Below, in pieces: positions 2,720-19,700 of a stretch of 21,051 nucleotides of DNA. Position 1 is the first letter of the stretch. The number at the start of each line of letters is the position of its first letter. The position numbers and the translations under genes are program-made. The notes below the pieces were generated by a model. The model did no database searches and had not been told where the DNA came from. It saw only the letters and a program-made list of their open reading frames with translations. Source of the DNA: a virus (Duplodnaviria; Heunggongvirae; Uroviricota; Caudoviricetes); IMG/VR virus record IMGVR_UViG_2579779002_000005. One strand, given 5' to 3'.

Positions 2720-4576
2720 TTATGATGATGCTGGTGCATTTATCTCCAGCACCAGACTTTCTATCTCAACGCCATACGCTGCATTTTTGGTAATATCCGT
2801 CAGCGTCAGCGCATTCAGCCCCAGTGTCAGACTGTCTTTTATGACCTGGAATGCCGGGCCAGCCACTCCATTCAGTTTCGGAGTAACCGTGGCACTGCCG
2901 GCGGTGAACACCAGCTCCAGCGTCTGCCAGTCGTTACTGTAATTCCCGAACTCGCCCAACTTTGTGTTTCCTGCTTTCCTGTGATGCATCAGATTCAGTT
3001 TGCCGTCTGTGGTCTGGGTGAAGAACGACATCAGGAACGGGTTACCAGTCCCGGTCATCGCCACGACGTCAGGTAACGCTACATCGGTATACAGATAAAT
3101 TCCCAGACCGAACTGGTTGTTGGTCAGTGCGCCTGACAGTCGAAACTTACAGCTCAGTCTGCCACCCCGTGTCAGCAGGGAGACTGCGTCATCCACCGGA
3201 TGCATCAGGGACCAGGTTTTATTGCTCTGCTTGGTAACCTTAAACACACCATCTTCCAGCGCAACACTGCCGCCGGTGATGGTCCAGCCCTGCGCAGCAG
3301 CCTCTCCGGCTGTCGGCAGCAGGGAGACTGTACGAACGGATGTGTCACCATCAGACGGCCCCGATGGCGTGTCGCCGCCGGGCGAGGGTTTAATCTCCGG
3401 TGCGGTACCGCTGATGAAGGCGCTGGTTCGACCAACTGCGTTCAGAATAGCGGTTGCCAGGCGATCCGAAATAATGCCCCTGCGCGCCCATGAACTGAAA
3501 TGTGTCGGACGATTTGACGATACCCAATTACCATTACTACGGGATTGCGCGCCGTAATAACCTGCATCAGCAATATCCGGGTCTTCTGCCGGTAAGTTGG
3601 TGGGCGTGTTGTTGCCGTTACCGTCGGTCATGAACGGCACAAAGAAAACGTTGTCGCTCTCCCTGTTTTTGTACGCGCCGTAGACGGAGTCATACTGTGT
3701 GCCGTATGTGTTTTTCCAGTAATACGTCGTGTCGCCACAAATCCACGGTACAACTGCAGCACTGCCGCCATGGCACTGCGCCGCCAGCCCGGCAAGGTCA
3801 GCACGGAACTGCTGTACCATTGCAAGAAATGCTGCTGGCTGCTGGGCGTAACTGGCATTCGTCATATCGAATTCCCCCTGCATCCAGCATATCGCCAGCA
3901 AAACGTTTTTCGGGTTTTTCTGCAATGCTGCCTTCGTGCGGAAAAGCAGATCCTGATATAATGGTTTACCCACACCCCAGCGTGCCGAATCCTGGCTGGC
4001 CCCCGTGTCCGCACTGAATGTCCCCTCCGCGCCCTGGGTGAATGCCGAACCACCACGACAGCATGGTACCAGCAGGATCCCCGCATTATTAGGGATATAC
4101 GGAAGCAGTTTTTTGGCAATATGTAAGCCCTGTCCGACACAGCCGTACTGCCCTTTGCTCAGGTCAGCCCGGGGATGGTTAATCGTACTCATATCCTGAA
4201 CATCATGCAGACAATGGTCAGCAGGAATGATGTCGTTAAATACGCATACTTCACCACCGGGAGTCACTGTGTTACGACGGGCCAGTTGCTTAATGCGCGG
4301 ATGGGGCGCATCGTATGAATCCGGAAGCGGAAGCCCTTCACCGTAAGCCATGGCATTGGACTGCCCGGCCAGTACGATGACGTAGTACCACTCCGGCTCA
4401 GTTGCACCACTGACGACCACATCACCTTCTGCTGCAATCGCCTGCATCAGGGTATAAGGGGTTATGGCCACCGGACTACCAAACGGCTGCCAGCCCTCTT
4501 TCAGTTTATGTGTCAGCTTTTCCGCAAGATCTGACGGCGACGCCGCCCTGACAACATCATAGTGTTTAAATGCCAT
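2720..4576 (-). CDS. nanS-p: Prophage sialate O-acetylesterase (NanS-p-like, SGNH/SASA esterase domain)
   Basis: 618 aa with a GQSN nucleophile block (VIVLAGQSNAMAYGEG). Located between the tRNA cluster and the holin, as in Stx-type lambdoid phages. Confidence 0.75.
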   Translation of the reverse strand: MAFKHYDVVRAASPSDLAEKLTHKLKEGWQPFGSPVAITPYTLMQAIAAEGDVVVSGATEPEWYYVIVLAGQSNAMAYGEGLPLPDSYDAPHPRIKQLARRNTVTPGGEVCVFNDIIPADHCLHDVQDMSTINHPRADLSKGQYGCVGQGLHIAKKLLPYIPNNAGILLVPCCRGGSAFTQGAEGTFSADTGASQDSARWGVGKPLYQDLLFRTKAALQKNPKNVLLAICWMQGEFDMTNASYAQQPAAFLAMVQQFRADLAGLAAQCHGGSAAVVPWICGDTTYYWKNTYGTQYDSVYGAYKNRESDNVFFVPFMTDGNGNNTPTNLPAEDPDIADAGYYGAQSRSNGNWVSSNRPTHFSSWARRGIISDRLATAILNAVGRTSAFISGTAPEIKPSPGGDTPSGPSDGDTSVRTVSLLPTAGEAAAQGWTITGGSVALEDGVFKVTKQSNKTWSLMHPVDDAVSLLTRGGRLSCKFRLSGALTNNQFGLGIYLYTDVALPDVVAMTGTGNPFLMSFFTQTTDGKLNLMHHRKAGNTKLGEFGNYSNDWQTLELVFTAGSATVTPKLNGVAGPAFQVIKDSLTLGLNALTLTDITKNAAYGVEIESLVLEINAPASS

Positions 4577-4798: not shown

Positions 4799-4806
4799 GC
4801 CCACAA

Positions 4807-5044
4807 GAAAACCCCTCCGGAGAGGGGCTAAAGCCGCGTATCTGTATCATCATGCACATGGTGCCGGGTGCCTCCCGGTGAGTTCAGCCCGGTGCCACTA
4901 AACCCGCGTCATTCTCGTTTTGATAATCAGAGATTATACCGTCACCAGTCGCCCCTCCGCTCAGGGGGATTCACCATGCGAAATTTTTTTAACAAATGCC
5001 CAGTCTGACAGGCAACTGTCAACTTACTGAATTGTGAGCAACAT
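4807..5044. repeat. Copy 1 of an imperfect ~220-240 bp direct repeat (non-coding module)
   Basis: Shares with copy 2 the blocks cccctccggagaggggct, catggtgccgggtgcctcccggtga, gcccctccgc.cagggggattcaccatgc, ttttaacaaa and acagtcaac..ctgaattgtgag. Confidence 0.7.
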
Positions 5045-5292
5045 AGCATTTAACGGGGAACCTGTTTTCTGCAGTAAAAAGGCCCACCGGAGCGGATGGG
5101 CCTGGAAGGATAGCGGTCATGTGATGCCGGTTTCCCGGTAACTCAGCACCGGTATCTGAGTCAACGTTTTCTCTACTGGGTCATTTCCGATACGCCCTGC
5201 CTGCTGACAGGCTTTCATCACATCTGAAAATATAGCACCCTGACTGATACTGTAGTACCTAAGGTTCCAGAAACTGTGATGTATCCGGCACA

Positions 5293-5512
5293 GAAAAGCC
5301 CCTCCGGAGAGGGGCTGGAGAGTGGCGCTATGTGCCATTGCATGGTGCCGGGTGCCTCCCGGTGAATTCAGTACCAGCACCTGAATCCGCGATTATCCCA
5401 TATACCTACTCGCTGATTGCCCCTCCGCACAGGGGGATTCACCATGCCAGTTTCTTTTAACAAACTCCCCGCAAACCAGACAACAGTCAACCGCCTGAAT
5501 TGTGAGACATTT
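5293..5512. repeat. Copy 2 of the imperfect direct repeat
   Basis: Same conserved blocks as copy 1. On the minus strand its gcccctc tccg gaggggc hairpin is followed by TTTTCT, so it looks like a terminator. Confidence 0.7.
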
Positions 5513-5551: not shown

Positions 5552-5628
5552 TGGCGCGTTGTACTGGATTCGAACCAGTGACCGATTGCTTAGAAGGCAA
5601 TTGCTCTGTCCGGCTGAGCTAACAACGC
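5552..5628 (-). tRNA. tRNA-Arg (anticodon UCU)
   Basis: Minus-strand sequence folds as a cloverleaf: acceptor GCGTTGT/ACAACGC, D stem GCTC/GAGC, anticodon stem ATTGC/GCAAT with loop CTTCTAA, T arm ACTGG-TTCGAAT-CCAGT, encoded CCA. Confidence 0.85.
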
Positions 5629-5641
5629 AGGATACAGATAA

Positions 5642-5718
5642 TGGACCGCCTTCGGGGACCCGAACTCCGCGCAACCAGCTTCGAAGGCTGGCGCTCTTTC
5701 CTGATGAGCTAATGGCGG
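5642..5718 (-). tRNA. tRNA-Arg (anticodon UCG), slightly degenerate
   Basis: Cloverleaf with anticodon stem CCAGC/GCTGG and loop CTTCGAA. It has one acceptor mismatch (A6-A67), one T-stem mismatch and T-loop TTCGGGT (G at position 58). The anticodon loop is palindromic, so strand is assigned from the neighbouring tRNAs. Confidence 0.6.
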
Positions 5719-5725
5719 TATGTGA

Positions 5726-5801
5726 TGGTGGCCCTTGCTGGATTTGAACCAGCGACCTGGCGATTATGAGTCGCTCGCTCTCACCACTGAGCTAAAGGGC
5801 C
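5726..5801 (-). tRNA. tRNA-Ile2-like (anticodon CAU, ileX/ileZ-like; could be read as Met)
   Basis: Perfect acceptor GGCCCTT/AAGGGCC, D arm GCTC-AGTGGTGA-GAGC, anticodon loop CTCATAA, T arm GCTGG-TTCAAAT-CCAGC, CCA end. Closely resembles E. coli ileX as I recall it. Confidence 0.85.
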
Positions 5802-10012: not shown

Positions 10013-10279
10013 CTGTTTTCTCTGCTGGCGCAGCAGGTGCCAGTTGTTCAGGCTGACGTATGAAGTATAAATAAACTGGCTCCAGTGTAAAGCCCCACCT
10101 TAATGGAATAAAAACCAAACAACAGATTGCTGGGATAAAAATACAACGCTTATTATTAAAAGCGGTTAGATAAATTAAATTTTAATGTTATGCAAATCTG
10201 CCAGATTAGCATAATATTTCATTTGAAAACCGCTGAAATAACAATCTTATCGGGATTAATCATATTAAGGTGAGTAAAT

Positions 10280-10366
10280 ATGGAAAACAACAAATCTGCA
10301 CATTACGCTCCTTTTTTATCTGTAATACTTTTTGTATTTTGTTGTGTATGGGCGGTATTTTTATAA
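10280..10366 (+). CDS. 28-aa small hydrophobic peptide (MENNKSAHYAPFLSVILFVFCCVWAVFL)
   Basis: AAGGTGAG Shine-Dalgarno 8 nt upstream of the ATG; a single predicted transmembrane helix; followed by the 10384..10410 hairpin. Below the 60-aa cutoff of the ORF track. Convergent with the protease gene. Confidence 0.3.
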   Translation: MENNKSAHYAPFLSVILFVFCCVWAVFL

Positions 10367-10383
10367 AACACACCCACAAATAA

Positions 10384-10410
10384 ATCAAACCCGCTACAGC
10401 GGGTTTGATT
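10384..10410 (-). terminator. Rho-independent terminator ending the ATPase-protease operon (shared hairpin with the convergent small ORF)
   Basis: Minus strand aaacccgc tgta gcgggttt followed by GATTTATTTGT, 11 bp after the protease stop. Confidence 0.6.
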
Positions 10411-10420
10411 TATATAGTTG

Positions 10421-12685
10421 TTATACGGAAACTGGCACACGAGCAGGCAATGGATAGTGAGCCCAGTTATTAGCATTTAAAGCTCTTACGCCATCAGCAT
10501 AAACTTGTGTTTTTCCATCTAATGATTTTAAAGTTACTACAATAGTTACAGGTAAAGGCTCCATTAAGGCCGGTTCATTCGCTCTCAACGTTGTTTTAGC
10601 TTGAAGAGCCCAGTTACCCGAAGTAATTCCTTTATTAAATGCCTTGCGATGAATTTTTACTGGTGACCACTTTCCACCATGCTCAATTTGAGCTCTCTCA
10701 TATCCAGATTGACCGTTTTCTCCTTCCATAGGTACTTTTCCTTTTATAGTATTATTCTCAATTAAGCCAAAACTTAGCTCTACGTTCGCGCGAACATATT
10801 CACTGCCGGCATTAGGGTTCAGTGGTGGTGCATATGCAGCAGTAATTACAATCTCACCTTTAAATTTTCCATTTTGAATAAGTGCCGATGGTATGGGATA
10901 GTTTTCCTTTCTCCACCTCACCCCAGGAACCAAGAATGTTTGGAAAATCAGAGTAAACCTATCATCACTATCATATAAGGTCTCAATAACCTCATTAGGA
11001 ATTCCCGCTCCCAAATAGCGTCTTTCACTTGGCGAGTAATCAGGAGAAGATAATTGAGCGGAATGAATTAATAATGCTTTAATCAATGATGGTGAAACAT
11101 TAAAGTCTGAATTAGTGGCTATTCTCTGCCATGTATGCGCAGCTAAACTTGCCACAATTGGAGCAGCAAAACTAGTACCAAAATTAGAGCAAAGCCTATT
11201 ATCTGGCCCTACGACCTTTAAACTGCTTGCTCCTACATTCCAAGGTCTATGAACCCCACCGCCAGCATGGATTATATCTGGCTTTGGAGTAAATACAGGC
11301 CCAGGGCCACGACGAGTATATGGTGTCGGTGTTCCAATTTCACTTAAAGCATCATTAGCTTCCATATGAGAAACTGAACCAACTGTTAGTGCTCGGACTG
11401 ACTCTCCAGGAGAGGAAATTAAATCAGCACCTCCAAGCGGATCAGGATTTGGCCATGTACGTATAGGTTCATCTACATAATTACCTGCAGCAACTACAAA
11501 CAAAATACCAAATTTATCGCTGAGCCGATCTAACTCCATCGCAAAATCACTAAACATCTGCTCATTACATGGTCCGCCTCCCAAAGATAAATTCCAGACT
11601 TTTATATCTGGTCTTTTATTTACAGCATCTGCTAGCCTCAGAATTAAATCTGATATATAAGATCCATTTTCATCTAAAGCACAAACATCATGGATTTTAG
11701 ATTTTGTATCAGGAATCCATGGATGATTGTCATTTAAAAAATGAGCGCCTGATATCAATGAAGACACCATAGTCCCATGTTCATAACTCGTATCAGGAGG
11801 AATTACGTATGTTTCCCTACTCACTACCCAAGGAGTAATTGTTGCCGCGATGGGGCTTACCCCAGTGTCAAATACAGCAACAATGGGTAATTCTTCTGAT
11901 GGTACGGGAAAGCTATTTGTTTCAATGCCAACAGAATCACTTACACTAACCGGGAATGCTGAATATTTTGGTTCTGGAATTAACGTTCTTATACCCGGGT
12001 AATCAATGAGAATGTCTAATATATATCTATCATTTGGGGATAAATCCATTATCCTTAATAAGGGAAGACCACATTTTGGTCTAATCTCATCATATTTAAC
12101 TCCGTGTTGTTCTAATATAGAAATAACGTTTTCATAGTTGTTGTAAGTTGCATCTTCACCTGTGTACTCAAATAGTCGTACAAGGATGTTTGATGATTCA
12201 AACAAACCATCAGTGCCTCCTGGAACCTTCCTATTCTCATCCCAAGGTTCAATGCGCTCAATCGCGCTTAGATTAGCCAAAATCGCTTTAATATTCCGAT
12301 GTAAAATGACTGACTCTAATACGTCAAAACAGCCGGCATGAGCAGCAACCAACATTTCATCTATTTTGGCATGACCGGCATTTTGCAATCCAGCCTCTTG
12401 AGCAATTTTGTTCGGCCTATGCGTTTTGGCTATTCCCTGGTCTCTTAATTTGAAAACCAAAGTACCCAAGCTTCCAGGGTACTCTGAAAGTTTGGATTCT
12501 AAATAATGTTTACTGGTTGTTAAATTTCTTACTAGCCCTTGTCTATATTCGGCTGTTACATCAACCAATACCTTTGCCCCACCGCCAGCGTTTACTATTG
12601 CACCCAAGTCACTACTGGAAAAAGGGATTCTTAACATTGGGTTTGTAACTTTTGCGTTACTAAACTGTGTACCCCTTCTGCTCAT
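10421..12685 (-). CDS. Subtilisin-like serine protease (peptidase S8) with large N- and C-terminal extensions; probably cytoplasmic
   Basis: 754 aa. Catalytic residues in D-H-S order: VAVFD273TG, YEH303GT, oxyanion AAGN402Y, GTS505FAAP. No N-terminal signal peptide is apparent. The ORF overlaps the upstream ATPase gene by 26 bp. Confidence 0.85.
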   Translation of the reverse strand: MSRRGTQFSNAKVTNPMLRIPFSSSDLGAIVNAGGGAKVLVDVTAEYRQGLVRNLTTSKHYLESKLSEYPGSLGTLVFKLRDQGIAKTHRPNKIAQEAGLQNAGHAKIDEMLVAAHAGCFDVLESVILHRNIKAILANLSAIERIEPWDENRKVPGGTDGLFESSNILVRLFEYTGEDATYNNYENVISILEQHGVKYDEIRPKCGLPLLRIMDLSPNDRYILDILIDYPGIRTLIPEPKYSAFPVSVSDSVGIETNSFPVPSEELPIVAVFDTGVSPIAATITPWVVSRETYVIPPDTSYEHGTMVSSLISGAHFLNDNHPWIPDTKSKIHDVCALDENGSYISDLILRLADAVNKRPDIKVWNLSLGGGPCNEQMFSDFAMELDRLSDKFGILFVVAAGNYVDEPIRTWPNPDPLGGADLISSPGESVRALTVGSVSHMEANDALSEIGTPTPYTRRGPGPVFTPKPDIIHAGGGVHRPWNVGASSLKVVGPDNRLCSNFGTSFAAPIVASLAAHTWQRIATNSDFNVSPSLIKALLIHSAQLSSPDYSPSERRYLGAGIPNEVIETLYDSDDRFTLIFQTFLVPGVRWRKENYPIPSALIQNGKFKGEIVITAAYAPPLNPNAGSEYVRANVELSFGLIENNTIKGKVPMEGENGQSGYERAQIEHGGKWSPVKIHRKAFNKGITSGNWALQAKTTLRANEPALMEPLPVTIVVTLKSLDGKTQVYADGVRALNANNWAHYPLPARVPVSV

Positions 12686-13814
12686 ATGCTCCTGACTCCT
12701 TCAGAATGTTTGAAATTACTCTTGATGTAAGTTTGTACAAATTAGCAAGAACTCTGATAGAAAATAATTTTTTATCTTTAGAACGTAACCAACGAATTTC
12801 ATCTTCGTAAGTGCTTAAATTTACACCTTCCATAAGCGATTGCGCAAGATACAAACGCCTATACAATTTATGGTGATTTATCACACTTGCACCTTCAATA
12901 ACTGCATCCCTACGTGCATCCAAGCTCACCTGTTCAATTATTGCTCCGGATAATCCCTCCGATTTTCTTGATAAATCACTTAAATCTAGATCGCTACATA
13001 TCATATTCTTTAAACGATTTTTCCAAATTAACTCTCTCTGATGTATGTCAGGCAGAGGCATTGGAATTCTGAAGCTAAATCGCCTCCAGATTGCAGGATC
13101 CAGAAGTTGCTCATGGTTAGTTGAGGCAATAATTACCGTATCCTCTGATGCCGCATCCATATTCTGCAATAGTGAAATGACAACTCGCTGAAGCTCACCT
13201 ATATCTCTCTCATTACCTCTTGCTCCAGCTAAAGCATCAAATTCGTCTAAAAAAAGCACTGATGGCCTCTGCATTACATAATCGAAAACCTGTCTAAGAT
13301 TTTTGCTGGTTTGTCCCAATAAACTACTAATCAAAGTATCGCAACGCACTGTAAGAAGTGGAAAATCTAAGCGGGTAGCGATGTACTTAGATAACATAGT
13401 CTTACCTGTTCCTGGCTTTCCATACACGAGCATACGACTCGGCAATGCTGCATCAGCTTTAACAAACTCATCATAACGTTGAACATTAGTGATAAACTCT
13501 TCAACACGGGTACTGATTGCTGCAGGCAGAAAAATCTCTGAACTGTCTAATTTAGGATAACTGACATCAACAGTGTTGAGTCGACTATCAATATCTACCG
13601 GTAATGAGCCCAGAGATATCCCACCTCCAGCCCTTTGAGCTCCTGCCAACGCCTGGGGAGCTCTAAGCAACCTTTCTCTTATCATTCTGGCTTGCTTGAC
13701 CTCCCCTTTTTGTTCGAGCTTATCTGCCAGCAACCCAGCATAATTACTAGCCATCGAAGCATTTGCCTTTGTTGCACCTTCAATGATTTTTAACACTTCT
13801 GATAAATAATCCAT
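12660..13814 (-). CDS. AAA+ ATPase (classical AAA clade)
   Basis: 384 aa. Walker A GKPGTGKT (K138), Walker B VLFLDEFD, sensor-1 IIASTNH, arginine-finger region DPAIWRRF. GGGAG ribosome-binding site upstream of the ATG. Confidence 0.85.
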   Translation of the reverse strand: MDYLSEVLKIIEGATKANASMASNYAGLLADKLEQKGEVKQARMIRERLLRAPQALAGAQRAGGGISLGSLPVDIDSRLNTVDVSYPKLDSSEIFLPAAISTRVEEFITNVQRYDEFVKADAALPSRMLVYGKPGTGKTMLSKYIATRLDFPLLTVRCDTLISSLLGQTSKNLRQVFDYVMQRPSVLFLDEFDALAGARGNERDIGELQRVVISLLQNMDAASEDTVIIASTNHEQLLDPAIWRRFSFRIPMPLPDIHQRELIWKNRLKNMICSDLDLSDLSRKSEGLSGAIIEQVSLDARRDAVIEGASVINHHKLYRRLYLAQSLMEGVNLSTYEDEIRWLRSKDKKLFSIRVLANLYKLTSRVISNILKESGAYEQKGYTV

Positions 13815-14007
13815 TCAACACTCCCACAACAAAAAGCCACAGCAATCAAAAAATGAGCACACAGAATCAAAATACTCTCTAATCGTAACGCATTTTGAGA
13901 TTTTTGATACGTTTTTTTGGGATTATGTAACGCCAAATGGTCATTTTGTGTCAGAAAAATAAATCTTAGTACCGAGAATATGTAGCTTCCATCCTTCATC
14001 GTTCTAT

Positions 14008-14439
14008 TCATCCCTGATCTCCAAGCCTCTCTCGAAAACCATTCTGATAAAACGCCAGCACACGCTGCATAACTTCGCTCTTCCGGCACTCGCGACAGAT
14101 TATGTTCAGACGCCTGTCGTAGCGGCGTATTTCTCCGTCTGGTAATGACCAGATAAGGTCCGGATCAACCACAGATGGTTTCTTCACCTTTGCCCTGGAT
14201 AGTTTTTTGCGGGCATTTTGCCAGTCCTTACGAGCCTGTTCAGACGGGAATAACCCGTAACCAGAGTTGTATACATCGCCACTGGCAACCAGCTCTCTGG
14301 CGAGAACGCTCATCAGATATCTTGTCGCACCTGTCTTGGCTTCCAGTTGCCGTAACGTCTCGCGCCCACTCCGGCGTACTAGCTCAACAACCTGCCCTTT
14401 AATTTTTTCCCGCTCTTCTTGTGTAAATACTTTTGCCAT
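14008..14439 (-). CDS. Hypothetical phage protein with putative HTH (about 143 aa)
   Basis: Start chosen at MAKVF, which has a GGAGG Shine-Dalgarno 5-6 nt upstream. Contains TLRQLEAKTGATRYLMSVLAREL and a CRECRK motif. No family recognised. Confidence 0.5.
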   Translation of the reverse strand: MAKVFTQEEREKIKGQVVELVRRSGRETLRQLEAKTGATRYLMSVLARELVASGDVYNSGYGLFPSEQARKDWQNARKKLSRAKVKKPSVVDPDLIWSLPDGEIRRYDRRLNIICRECRKSEVMQRVLAFYQNGFRERLGDQG

Positions 14440-19295: not shown

Positions 19296-19700
19296 GGGTC
19301 AGGTGGAGTGCGTGCGCCGGACACGGGTGAACATCCGGCACTGACAGTTTACTGAAAGGATATGTCCCTGAAAAGTCAGGGCATAACGCGAAAGCGCACG
19401 GCGAAATTGGTCTCTCTGTACGGTGTCGTTAAATTTAGTTCGACCGTGCGCTTCCGGTTGTGGCAATCCGCGAAATGGTGCGGCGGTAAGTATGGCGGGG
19501 TTATTCCTTCCCCCGTTGAGGACACCGGGTTGTCAGGTTGACCATACGCTTAAGTGACAACCCCGCTGCAACGCCCTCTGTTATCAATTTTCTGGTGACG
19601 TTTGGCGGTATCAGTTTTACTCCGTGACTGCTCTGCCGCCCTTTTTAAAGTGAATTTTGTGATGTGGTGAATGCGGCTGAGCGCACGCGGAACAGTTAAA
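19296..19700. other. GC-rich structured non-coding region with nested hairpins and repeated GCGTGCGC / GCGCACG motifs in alternating orientation
   Basis: Hairpins ctccac..gtggag (about 19284..19308), ccgga..tccgg (19317..19340) and ccctga-aaag-tcaggg (19366..19381). CGTGCGC occurs at 19311 and 19445, and its complement GCGCACG at 19394 and 19681. The only long ORF here (19617..20222, minus) looks spurious. Confidence 0.3.

Follow-up and report, generated by a model that had tools for sequence, protein, structure and literature searches.

A Caudoviricetes record of 21,051 nucleotides (nt) (IMG/VR IMGVR_UViG_2579779002_000005; "the window" below is this whole stretch) proves to be a Qin/Rac-like lambdoid prophage of Escherichia coli, and a 408-nt gap beside its IetAS defence cassette holds a 28-codon open reading frame (ORF; 10280..10366, plus strand) that belongs to a conserved, autonomous unit, its coding capacity maintained across relatives and its presence independent of its neighbours. 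The ORF very probably encodes a tiny membrane peptide that no database annotates. We read it as an accessory gene, complete in itself, that such prophages of E. coli carry in the gap, running opposite to the early-right/Q operon; that its product acts on the membrane in the manner of a toxin is suggested by analogy, and it is this toxin-like reading that we favour at a probability of roughly 0.4.

If translated, the ORF would represent an unannotated protein family in roughly one in five complete E. coli genomes, including that of the model uropathogen CFT073, and it lies exactly at the edge of a slot in which these prophages accumulate toxin and anti-phage genes (hok/sok, IetAS, HEPN and ATPase systems). 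That it is independent of IetAS guards against an erroneous model in which the defence system would have three genes, and easily handled carrier strains make the toxin question directly testable.

Conservation of the small reading frame

The start, stop and translation (MENNKSAHYAPFLSVILFVFCCVWAVFL) of the ORF read from the sequence just as the original prediction had them, and a strong Shine–Dalgarno (SD) sequence, AAGGTGAG, precedes it; the spacing to the start codon is 5 nt, the 8 nt first given being obtained only by counting from the GGTG core. Also as predicted, a GC hairpin follows the ORF and serves the convergent protease gene, IetS, as a terminator: its arms (10380–10395 and 10398–10413) are 16 nt long and 100% complementary, with a folding energy of about −22 kcal/mol on either strand, and it begins 13 nt past the small-ORF stop and lies 7 nt past the stop codon of IetS, whose ORF ends at 10421. 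Related loci have a homologous hairpin as the terminator of hok (AAACCCGC-loop-GCGGGTT). By length alone the small ORF is unremarkable, 14 ORFs of at least 20 amino acids overlapping the gap; what lifts it above chance is its conservation in relatives, in the form of integrity, a retained SD and slow evolution.

We recovered 187 copies of the ORF, comprising 22 distinct DNA sequences, and every copy and every variant keeps the start, the stop and the exact 28-codon length, so that the prospect, raised at the outset, of a frame not conserved in related prophages can be set aside. A degenerate pattern built on the peptide found 125 copies in 11 variants, all of 28 codons. To remove the bias of such a pattern, we also searched with an anchor independent of the ORF, a conserved sequence 90–130 nt upstream, counting only loci long enough to judge: the frame was intact in 141 of 141, among them new amino-acid variants. 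The 71 metagenome copies are likewise all intact and contain known variants only. A minimum spanning tree places 52 substitutions in the ORF; as 7–11% of random substitutions would be disruptive (start or stop lost, or a new stop created), the chance of seeing no disruption is about 0.003–0.02. The ORF evolves about twice as slowly as the adjacent spacers (0.60 substitutions per nt, the spacers upstream of it having about 1.3), and the sequence just past its stop is the fastest-evolving part of all, at 2.6. The SD keeps a purine-rich core at the same spacing throughout, as AAGGTGAG, AAAGTGAG or AAGGTGGT and, rarely, AAAGCGAG or AAGGTAAG.

Substitutions within the ORF show a synonymous excess, with a ratio of nonsynonymous to synonymous rates (dN/dS) of 0.34–0.42 (p = 0.002–0.005). 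Frames +2 and −1 also give about 0.45, and the test therefore does not single out the frame of the ORF; these two frames hold stop codons in 5 and 18 of the 22 variants, respectively. That similarity feeds the argument that the ORF is incidental and the region conserved for non-coding reasons, whether regulation of the divergent Q-operon promoter, a palindrome that binds protein, the hok terminator and 3′ end, or an RNA on either strand. Consistent with it, a non-coding block upstream equals the ORF in conservation, the first 16 codons hardly vary, synonymous sites included, within one of the two clades into which the copies fall (clade A), no promoter was found for the ORF, and total divergence is shallow. 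It leaves unexplained, however, why start, stop and length survive in each of the 22 variants when both other plus-strand frames are interrupted by stops in at least some of them, why disruption is absent at odds of 0.003–0.02, why the SD persists through different sequences, why hydrophobicity is kept through at least 15 amino-acid replacements, and why conservation collapses immediately past the stop. We consider an incidental ORF improbable and the ORF likely to be a real, translated gene.

Polar N terminus and single hydrophobic helix, both part of the original prediction, hold up in hydropathy and in the conservation of all variants. Residues 1–10 are polar and residues 11–28 hydrophobic (mean Kyte–Doolittle values of −1.4 and +2.6), the latter averaging +2.3 to +2.7 in four representative variants and being long enough to cross the bilayer, as expected of a small single-pass membrane protein. 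Residues 11–28 are hydrophobic in every variant, all replacements being hydrophobic or small, and M1, E2, N3, N4, H8, P11, L13, S14, I16, L17, F18, C21, W24, A25, F27 and L28 are invariant. Inspection by eye revealed no lipobox (L-[AS]-[GA]-C) before Cys21: residues 18–21 are FVFC, FVLC or FACC in most variants, and only the rare FAGC and FVSC come near it.

The same short, Phe-rich frame, with a terminator 13 nt later, could be taken for a leader peptide or attenuator, or for the signal-peptide relic of a truncated gene; weak Rfam matches to Phe and Leu leaders (E = 0.13–0.15; 21–25 bits against gathering scores of 50–55) point the same way, and by eye the C terminus, ...CVWA|VFL, resembles a signal-peptidase site. 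There is, however, no gene downstream on the same strand for an attenuator to govern, the next gene being convergent; the stop stands at the same place in both clades, in front of unrelated downstream DNA, so any truncation must predate their split, and the frame has remained intact nonetheless; and no copy has a longer version. We regard this origin as very unlikely.

Of 5426 complete E. coli genomes, 1176 carry the ORF by sensitive BLASTN, in one or two copies each and at 1240 places altogether; CFT073 is among them (NZ_CP058222.1, 3049644–3049730, plus strand). Beyond E. coli it occurs only in Shigella and E. ruysiae, always in Qin/Rac-like lambdoid prophages: among the 185,579 species representatives of GTDB a strict pattern matched S. 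flexneri and E. ruysiae alone, phage and plasmid records yielded only copies of the same length, from E. coli, and IMG/VR, searched for more distant relatives by allowing a different codon in place of Pro, gave 0 matches. Searches of Pfam, NCBIfam and PHROGs at E up to 10 returned chance matches only (Sec20, 0.17; Lp6.6, 0.05) and no toxin family, and the peptide string was not found in full-text literature. At 87 nt the ORF falls below the usual minimum length of gene callers, and it is as expected, therefore, that an exact look-up of five peptide variants in a collection of 15 billion proteins found none. A preprint on ribosome profiling and RNA sequencing of CFT073 describes 78 intergenic small ORFs, predicts a transmembrane helix for 15 and counts six of these as novel; the two for which it publishes coordinates, SMP3 and SMP7, differ from the small ORF (doi 10.64898/2026.09.28.754932).

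Changing neighbours of the unit

The original prediction offered two roles for the peptide, an independent small moron or an accessory component of the neighbouring ATPase–protease module, and the genomic contexts decide firmly between them. Of the right-hand neighbours in 110 distinct IMG/VR contexts, 61 are hok, 14 are a truncated hok, 27 are a 43-amino-acid ORF and only 8 are IetS. Diverged relatives have hokD in place of IetS, convergent with the small ORF and ending at the homologous hairpin; on the left, relatives carry either a 92-amino-acid ORF paired with a DUF968 gene or a DUF1367 gene. The unit thus recombines without regard to its flanks, whether on the right (hok/sok, hok remnants, the 43-amino-acid ORF, IetAS) or on the left (the 92-amino-acid/DUF968 pair, DUF1367), and its standing as an independent moron is borne out both by these differing neighbours and by its conservation.

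A role as accessory or third component of IetAS, an ATPase plus S8 protease defence system, draws on adjacency in the window and on the fact that 16 of 16 full-length IMG/VR loci with 99–100% identical IetS carry the ORF 13 nt beyond the common hairpin. The 16, however, are a single prophage lineage, so the proposed conservation beside homologous ATPase–protease cassettes holds within that lineage and fails in the one diverged IetS found (locus L188, 75% identity): there a terminator and an unrelated, possibly DinI-like 77-amino-acid ORF beginning MKVELTIDRTKEL follow IetS, and the small ORF is absent. Moreover, 75 of the 110 contexts have hok or its remnants and 27 another small ORF, the IetS-type junction is matched at 99% identity or more in about 59 of some 1176 carrier genomes, and the convergent orientation means that ORF and IetS are not co-transcribed. 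Since the IetS-linked loci are one lineage, diverged IetS lacks the ORF and hok is the usual neighbour, membership in IetAS is extremely unlikely and the independence of the small ORF almost certain; it is IetAS that landed in a slot usually held by hok.

Nor is the ORF a part of hok/sok: it lies on the opposite strand, is absent from the hokD locus of K-12, and is present without hok in clade B and in the IetS-linked copies. CFT073 has the hokD arrangement, and there and in locus L002 the hok locus is a complete hok/sok (Rfam sok, 101 bits), sok being found in relatives only beside hok. In the Qin prophage of K-12, hokD and its terminator are present, the sequence beyond differs, and the small ORF is missing. 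In the 14 contexts with hok truncated or replaced (L130, L132, L160 and similar), the hok 3′ untranslated region and the small ORF are intact; the replacing sequences resemble insertion sequence (IS) ends or deletions. The second clade, clade B, whose peptide (MENNNYAHLAPFLSVILFAGCFIWALFL) is 71% identical and whose SD is AAGGTGGT, lacks hok, and there the small ORF converges on the unrelated hydrophobic 43-amino-acid ORF (MKHIIDMLIRGEDRINMVVFRITICFTFSLCILCVRNNLLKFN, annotated as hypothetical); Rfam identified no family in this convergent region (locus L006, about 4160–4530). A 13-bp inverted repeat, AGGATGCCTTTAC...GTAAAGGCATCCT, lies between the two ORFs.

The hairpin of hok-linked copies (L002, about 5350–5460; L193, 3606–3720) has its U-tail on the hok side only, so plus-strand transcripts of the small ORF may run antisense into the hok 3′ region, the part of hok mRNA that controls its activation.

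Upstream block, RNA signals and action of the peptide

Conservation in the gap is concentrated in three islands: 10030–10095, a 64-nt non-coding block (10137–10200), and the SD with the ORF. The block always accompanies the ORF, the two being present in essentially the same set of E. coli genomes (1177 for the block, 1176 for the ORF), and it may serve as the mRNA leader or promoter of the ORF or as the gene for a minus-strand RNA of about 65 nt. A conserved stem-loop bridges the block and the spacer that follows; its inner stem differs completely between the clades yet remains complementary. Pairing is found in 87% of cells, against 23–53% once the partners are slid; in three pairs both partners have changed; and the covariation score of 0.158 (against 0.071) exceeds all shuffles (0 of 500). 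In 11 of 18 variants the plus strand has a G-U at one pair where the minus strand would have A-C, which mildly favours a plus-strand RNA, that is, an mRNA leader starting upstream of 10185. Within the block, TATTAT at 10151 is invariant in 72 of 72 variants, its −35 element being present in clade A only. Block and ORF are separated by about 1.1 kb in strain 3PT (NZ_CM137004.1, 2439774–2441071), and in locus L072 what had seemed the left boundary of the module looks by eye like an IS end, abutting the block about 160 nt upstream of the ORF; these insertions could serve as natural experiments on the role of the block.

Several other candidate signals were discarded. A 9-nt anti-SD inverted repeat (10096–10104/10264–10272) has mismatches in the commonest variant, is missing from clade B and is expected about 0.3 times by chance; the direct repeat CAAATCTGC (10193/10291), considered as a pairing site for an RNA from the block, is not conserved and gives duplex energies like those of shuffles (z −1.1 to +1.2); an upstream ORF at 10190..10273 is frameshifted in relatives; and an analogy with IsrK of Gifsy-1 found no Rfam match, isrK presumably lying at a different position, downstream of a Q-like gene.

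A −10-like element of the minus strand, TATGNT (10213→10208), occurs in 72 of 72 variants, mostly extended by TGn; the block comes next and ends in a 5-bp hairpin with a T-run, an arrangement that would fit an RNA of about 65 nt. This raises the possibility of a complete new type I toxin–antitoxin (TA) pair, in which a 28-amino-acid toxin would be opposed by a cis-antisense antitoxin transcribed from about 10201 to 10137 and acting against the long leader of the toxin mRNA. In keeping with such a pair, C-to-T changes on the minus strand preserve G-U pairing in the terminal hairpin, one pair showing the series C-G, U-G, U-A; the plus-strand G-U pairs of the stem-loop imply an mRNA leader over the same DNA, so that the two RNAs would overlap; and hok/sok lies next door. 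The hairpin itself, however, has a consensus energy of only −3.1 kcal/mol and would be almost unstable in clade B; its changes are mostly one-sided wobbles with one break, the E. ruysiae variant favouring the opposite strand and breaking a minus-strand pair. A 70-nt RNA from the block is no more stably folded than shuffled sequences (z = −0.08), the variant present in the window has a weak promoter, and Rfam 15 returned nothing for the gap at gathering scores and no antitoxin family at E up to 10, with the same outcome for clade B. We judge the complete pair unlikely. If true, it would add a previously unrecognised type I TA family in about 22% of complete E. coli genomes, with toxin loci tail to tail with hok/sok across a common 3′ hairpin and mutual influence possible via convergent transcription.

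Our favoured reading is an accessory gene with a toxin-like product. The unit runs from the block through the stem-loop, a variable spacer, the SD and the ORF to the hairpin just past the stop. Its mRNA would have a leader of about 100 nt or more that includes the stem-loop, and synthesis of the peptide would be limited at the RNA level. The peptide would be anchored in the inner membrane by a C-terminal helix of about 18–20 residues, with the ten polar N-terminal residues on the cytoplasmic side, and its action may be dose-dependent and toxin-like, either depolarising or perturbing the membrane or poisoning a membrane protein. The unit sits in a toxin/defence cargo slot, next to a bona fide hok/sok locus, and this position, the size of the peptide, the tightly conserved RNA element beside the ORF and the want of a strong promoter are, by analogy, type I-like features.

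A number of observations weigh against this reading. The SD is not convincingly hidden: no robust structure covers it, and a predicted 5-bp helix between block and SD is weak. No antitoxin RNA was found and no antisense RNA is convincing, the minus-strand hairpin being weak and complementarity in trans to the start region absent; the peptide has no homology to a toxin family; promoter scans found no plus-strand sigma-70 consensus promoter common to both clades; and the C-terminal ...VWA-VFL looks like a signal-peptide relic. The dN/dS values of the two other frames count here as well, as does the narrowness and shallowness of the family, confined to Escherichia and Shigella, owing to which its conservation may partly reflect youth.

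With no antisense RNA evident and a strong SD that looks accessible, we rank nearly as likely as the toxin-like reading the possibility of a benign membrane regulator or exclusion factor: a small inner-membrane protein, again a moron, that would modulate a host or phage membrane protein (a transporter, sensor kinase, protease or DNA-entry channel) without any toxin–antitoxin logic, for example in superinfection exclusion or stress adaptation. The evidence for coding applies to it equally; a short polar N terminus with a helix running to the C terminus is the architecture of many non-toxic E. coli proteins; the invariance of Cys21, Trp24, His8 and Pro11 suggests a specific interaction surface; and the ORF is retained where hok has decayed. 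Set against this, no partner can be named, only the flanking promoter region and no gene accompanies the ORF consistently, and the long conserved non-coding block with its stem-loop suggests tighter control at the RNA level than is usual for such genes.

Prophage setting and comparison with known systems

Reading leftward on the minus strand, the window carries replication genes, IetA–IetS, the gap, the 92-amino-acid ORF, DUF968, RusA and the Q antiterminator; on the right-hand side are DicF and the repressor region. IetS is a 754-amino-acid ORF, Pfam matches in the cassette (10421..13814) are Peptidase_S8 and AAA, and RefSeq names the genes iteS and iteA in an identical E. coli chromosome; AR_0069 is one carrier of IetAS. 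The G+C content is 34% in the gap, against 48% in the whole window. The gap is matched by 2496 E. coli records, 740 of which cover most of it, and none of these matches carries a RefSeq or GenBank annotation there; its leftmost 59 nt are found in about 2500 E. coli records, O157 included. The left island holds an invariant sigma-70-like promoter aimed at the 92-amino-acid ORF, DUF968, RusA and Q genes, an indication that in these prophages the Q operon is served by a promoter of its own and does not depend on read-through past the hok/IetS terminator. Coordinates of the features are collected in the table.

The cargo hotspot is the slot between the DUF977 gene and the hok/small-ORF unit (10421–14100 in the window, with equivalents in loci L002, L003, L004 and L193). 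It holds IetAS in the window, an LA2681-type HEPN protein in L003, and an AAA ATPase with a DUF262 protein in L004; in L002 and CFT073 there are small hypothetical genes only. Rfam matches at gathering level in the window are two copies of the STnc100 small RNA family, three tRNAs and DicF (4799–5008(−), 5286–5476(−), 5555–5801(−), 19590–19641(+)), all typical of the late-regulatory and immunity regions of Qin-like prophages.

Table. Positions in the window of the small-ORF unit, its signals and the adjoining defence genes
Feature	Position	Strand	Remarks
Small ORF, 28 codons (coordinates include the stop), encoding MENNKSAHYAPFLSVILFVFCCVWAVFL	10280..10366	+	ATG 10280–10282, TAA 10364–10366
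Shine–Dalgarno sequence AAGGTGAG	10267..10274	+	5 nt before ATG
Hairpin, 16-bp, G+C-cored, U-rich tails on both strands	10380..10413		Terminator-like score; bidirectional, common to small ORF and IetS
Conserved non-coding 64-nt block	10137..10200		0.67 substitutions per nt against about 1.3 in flanking spacers; overlaps 5′ arm of stem-loop
Conserved stem-loop	10185..10217	+	Outer stem ATGTTATG(C)/(G)CATAAYAT; inner stem varies, stays complementary
Weak 5-bp hairpin CGCTT/AAGCG with T-run	10147..10164	−	Possible terminator of a minus-strand RNA; weak support
Sigma-70-like promoter TTTACA-16-TATACT	10064..10091	−	10/12 consensus match; identical in all representatives; divergent from small ORF
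IetS	10421..12685	−	PADLOC E = 6e-300; 754-amino-acid ORF, convergent with small ORF; defence-cassette neighbour
IetA	12660..13814	−	PADLOC E = 9e-143; partner upstream of IetS; defence-cassette neighbour

Type I toxins are the comparison that the original prediction had drawn; short ones in E. coli are Ibs (19 amino acids), ShoB (26), DinQ (27), TisB (29) and ZorO (29). They match the peptide in size, in having one hydrophobic helix with few polar residues at one end, and in genetic layout, being monocistronic, with their own SD and terminator, in horizontally acquired DNA adjoining a conserved non-coding region. The resemblance remains an analogy: the peptide shows no sequence similarity to any described toxin family (Hok/Gef, Ldr, Ibs, TisB, ShoB and others) in Pfam, NCBIfam or PHROGs, Rfam detects no described antitoxin RNA family at the locus, and, unlike in these systems, the SD looks accessible. 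With hok/sok the small ORF shares a slot and a common hairpin, as its usual physical neighbour, tail to tail, both loci encoding small membrane peptides; it differs in lying on the other strand, outside hok mRNA, mok and sok, and in persisting when hok is truncated.

Small inner-membrane proteins of E. coli that are not toxic, among them YohP, YkgR, MgtS and AcrZ, have about 27–50 residues and a single helix, and such proteins are often unannotated and found by ribosome profiling. The peptide falls in the same size class and likewise has a single helix; it shares no homology with them, is borne on prophages and is restricted to Escherichia and Shigella. Phage morons, finally, are autonomous promoter–gene–terminator units, for example lambda bor and lom or HK97 gp15. 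Like them, the small ORF runs opposite to the surrounding operon, is A+T-rich relative to its flanks and has its own terminator, and its unit has a mosaic distribution, bounded left and right by recombination breakpoints; the classical examples are much larger, and consensus scans gave the small ORF no promoter common to both clades. The unit is thus an unannotated example of the small membrane peptides carried by prophages, possibly one of type I-like character.

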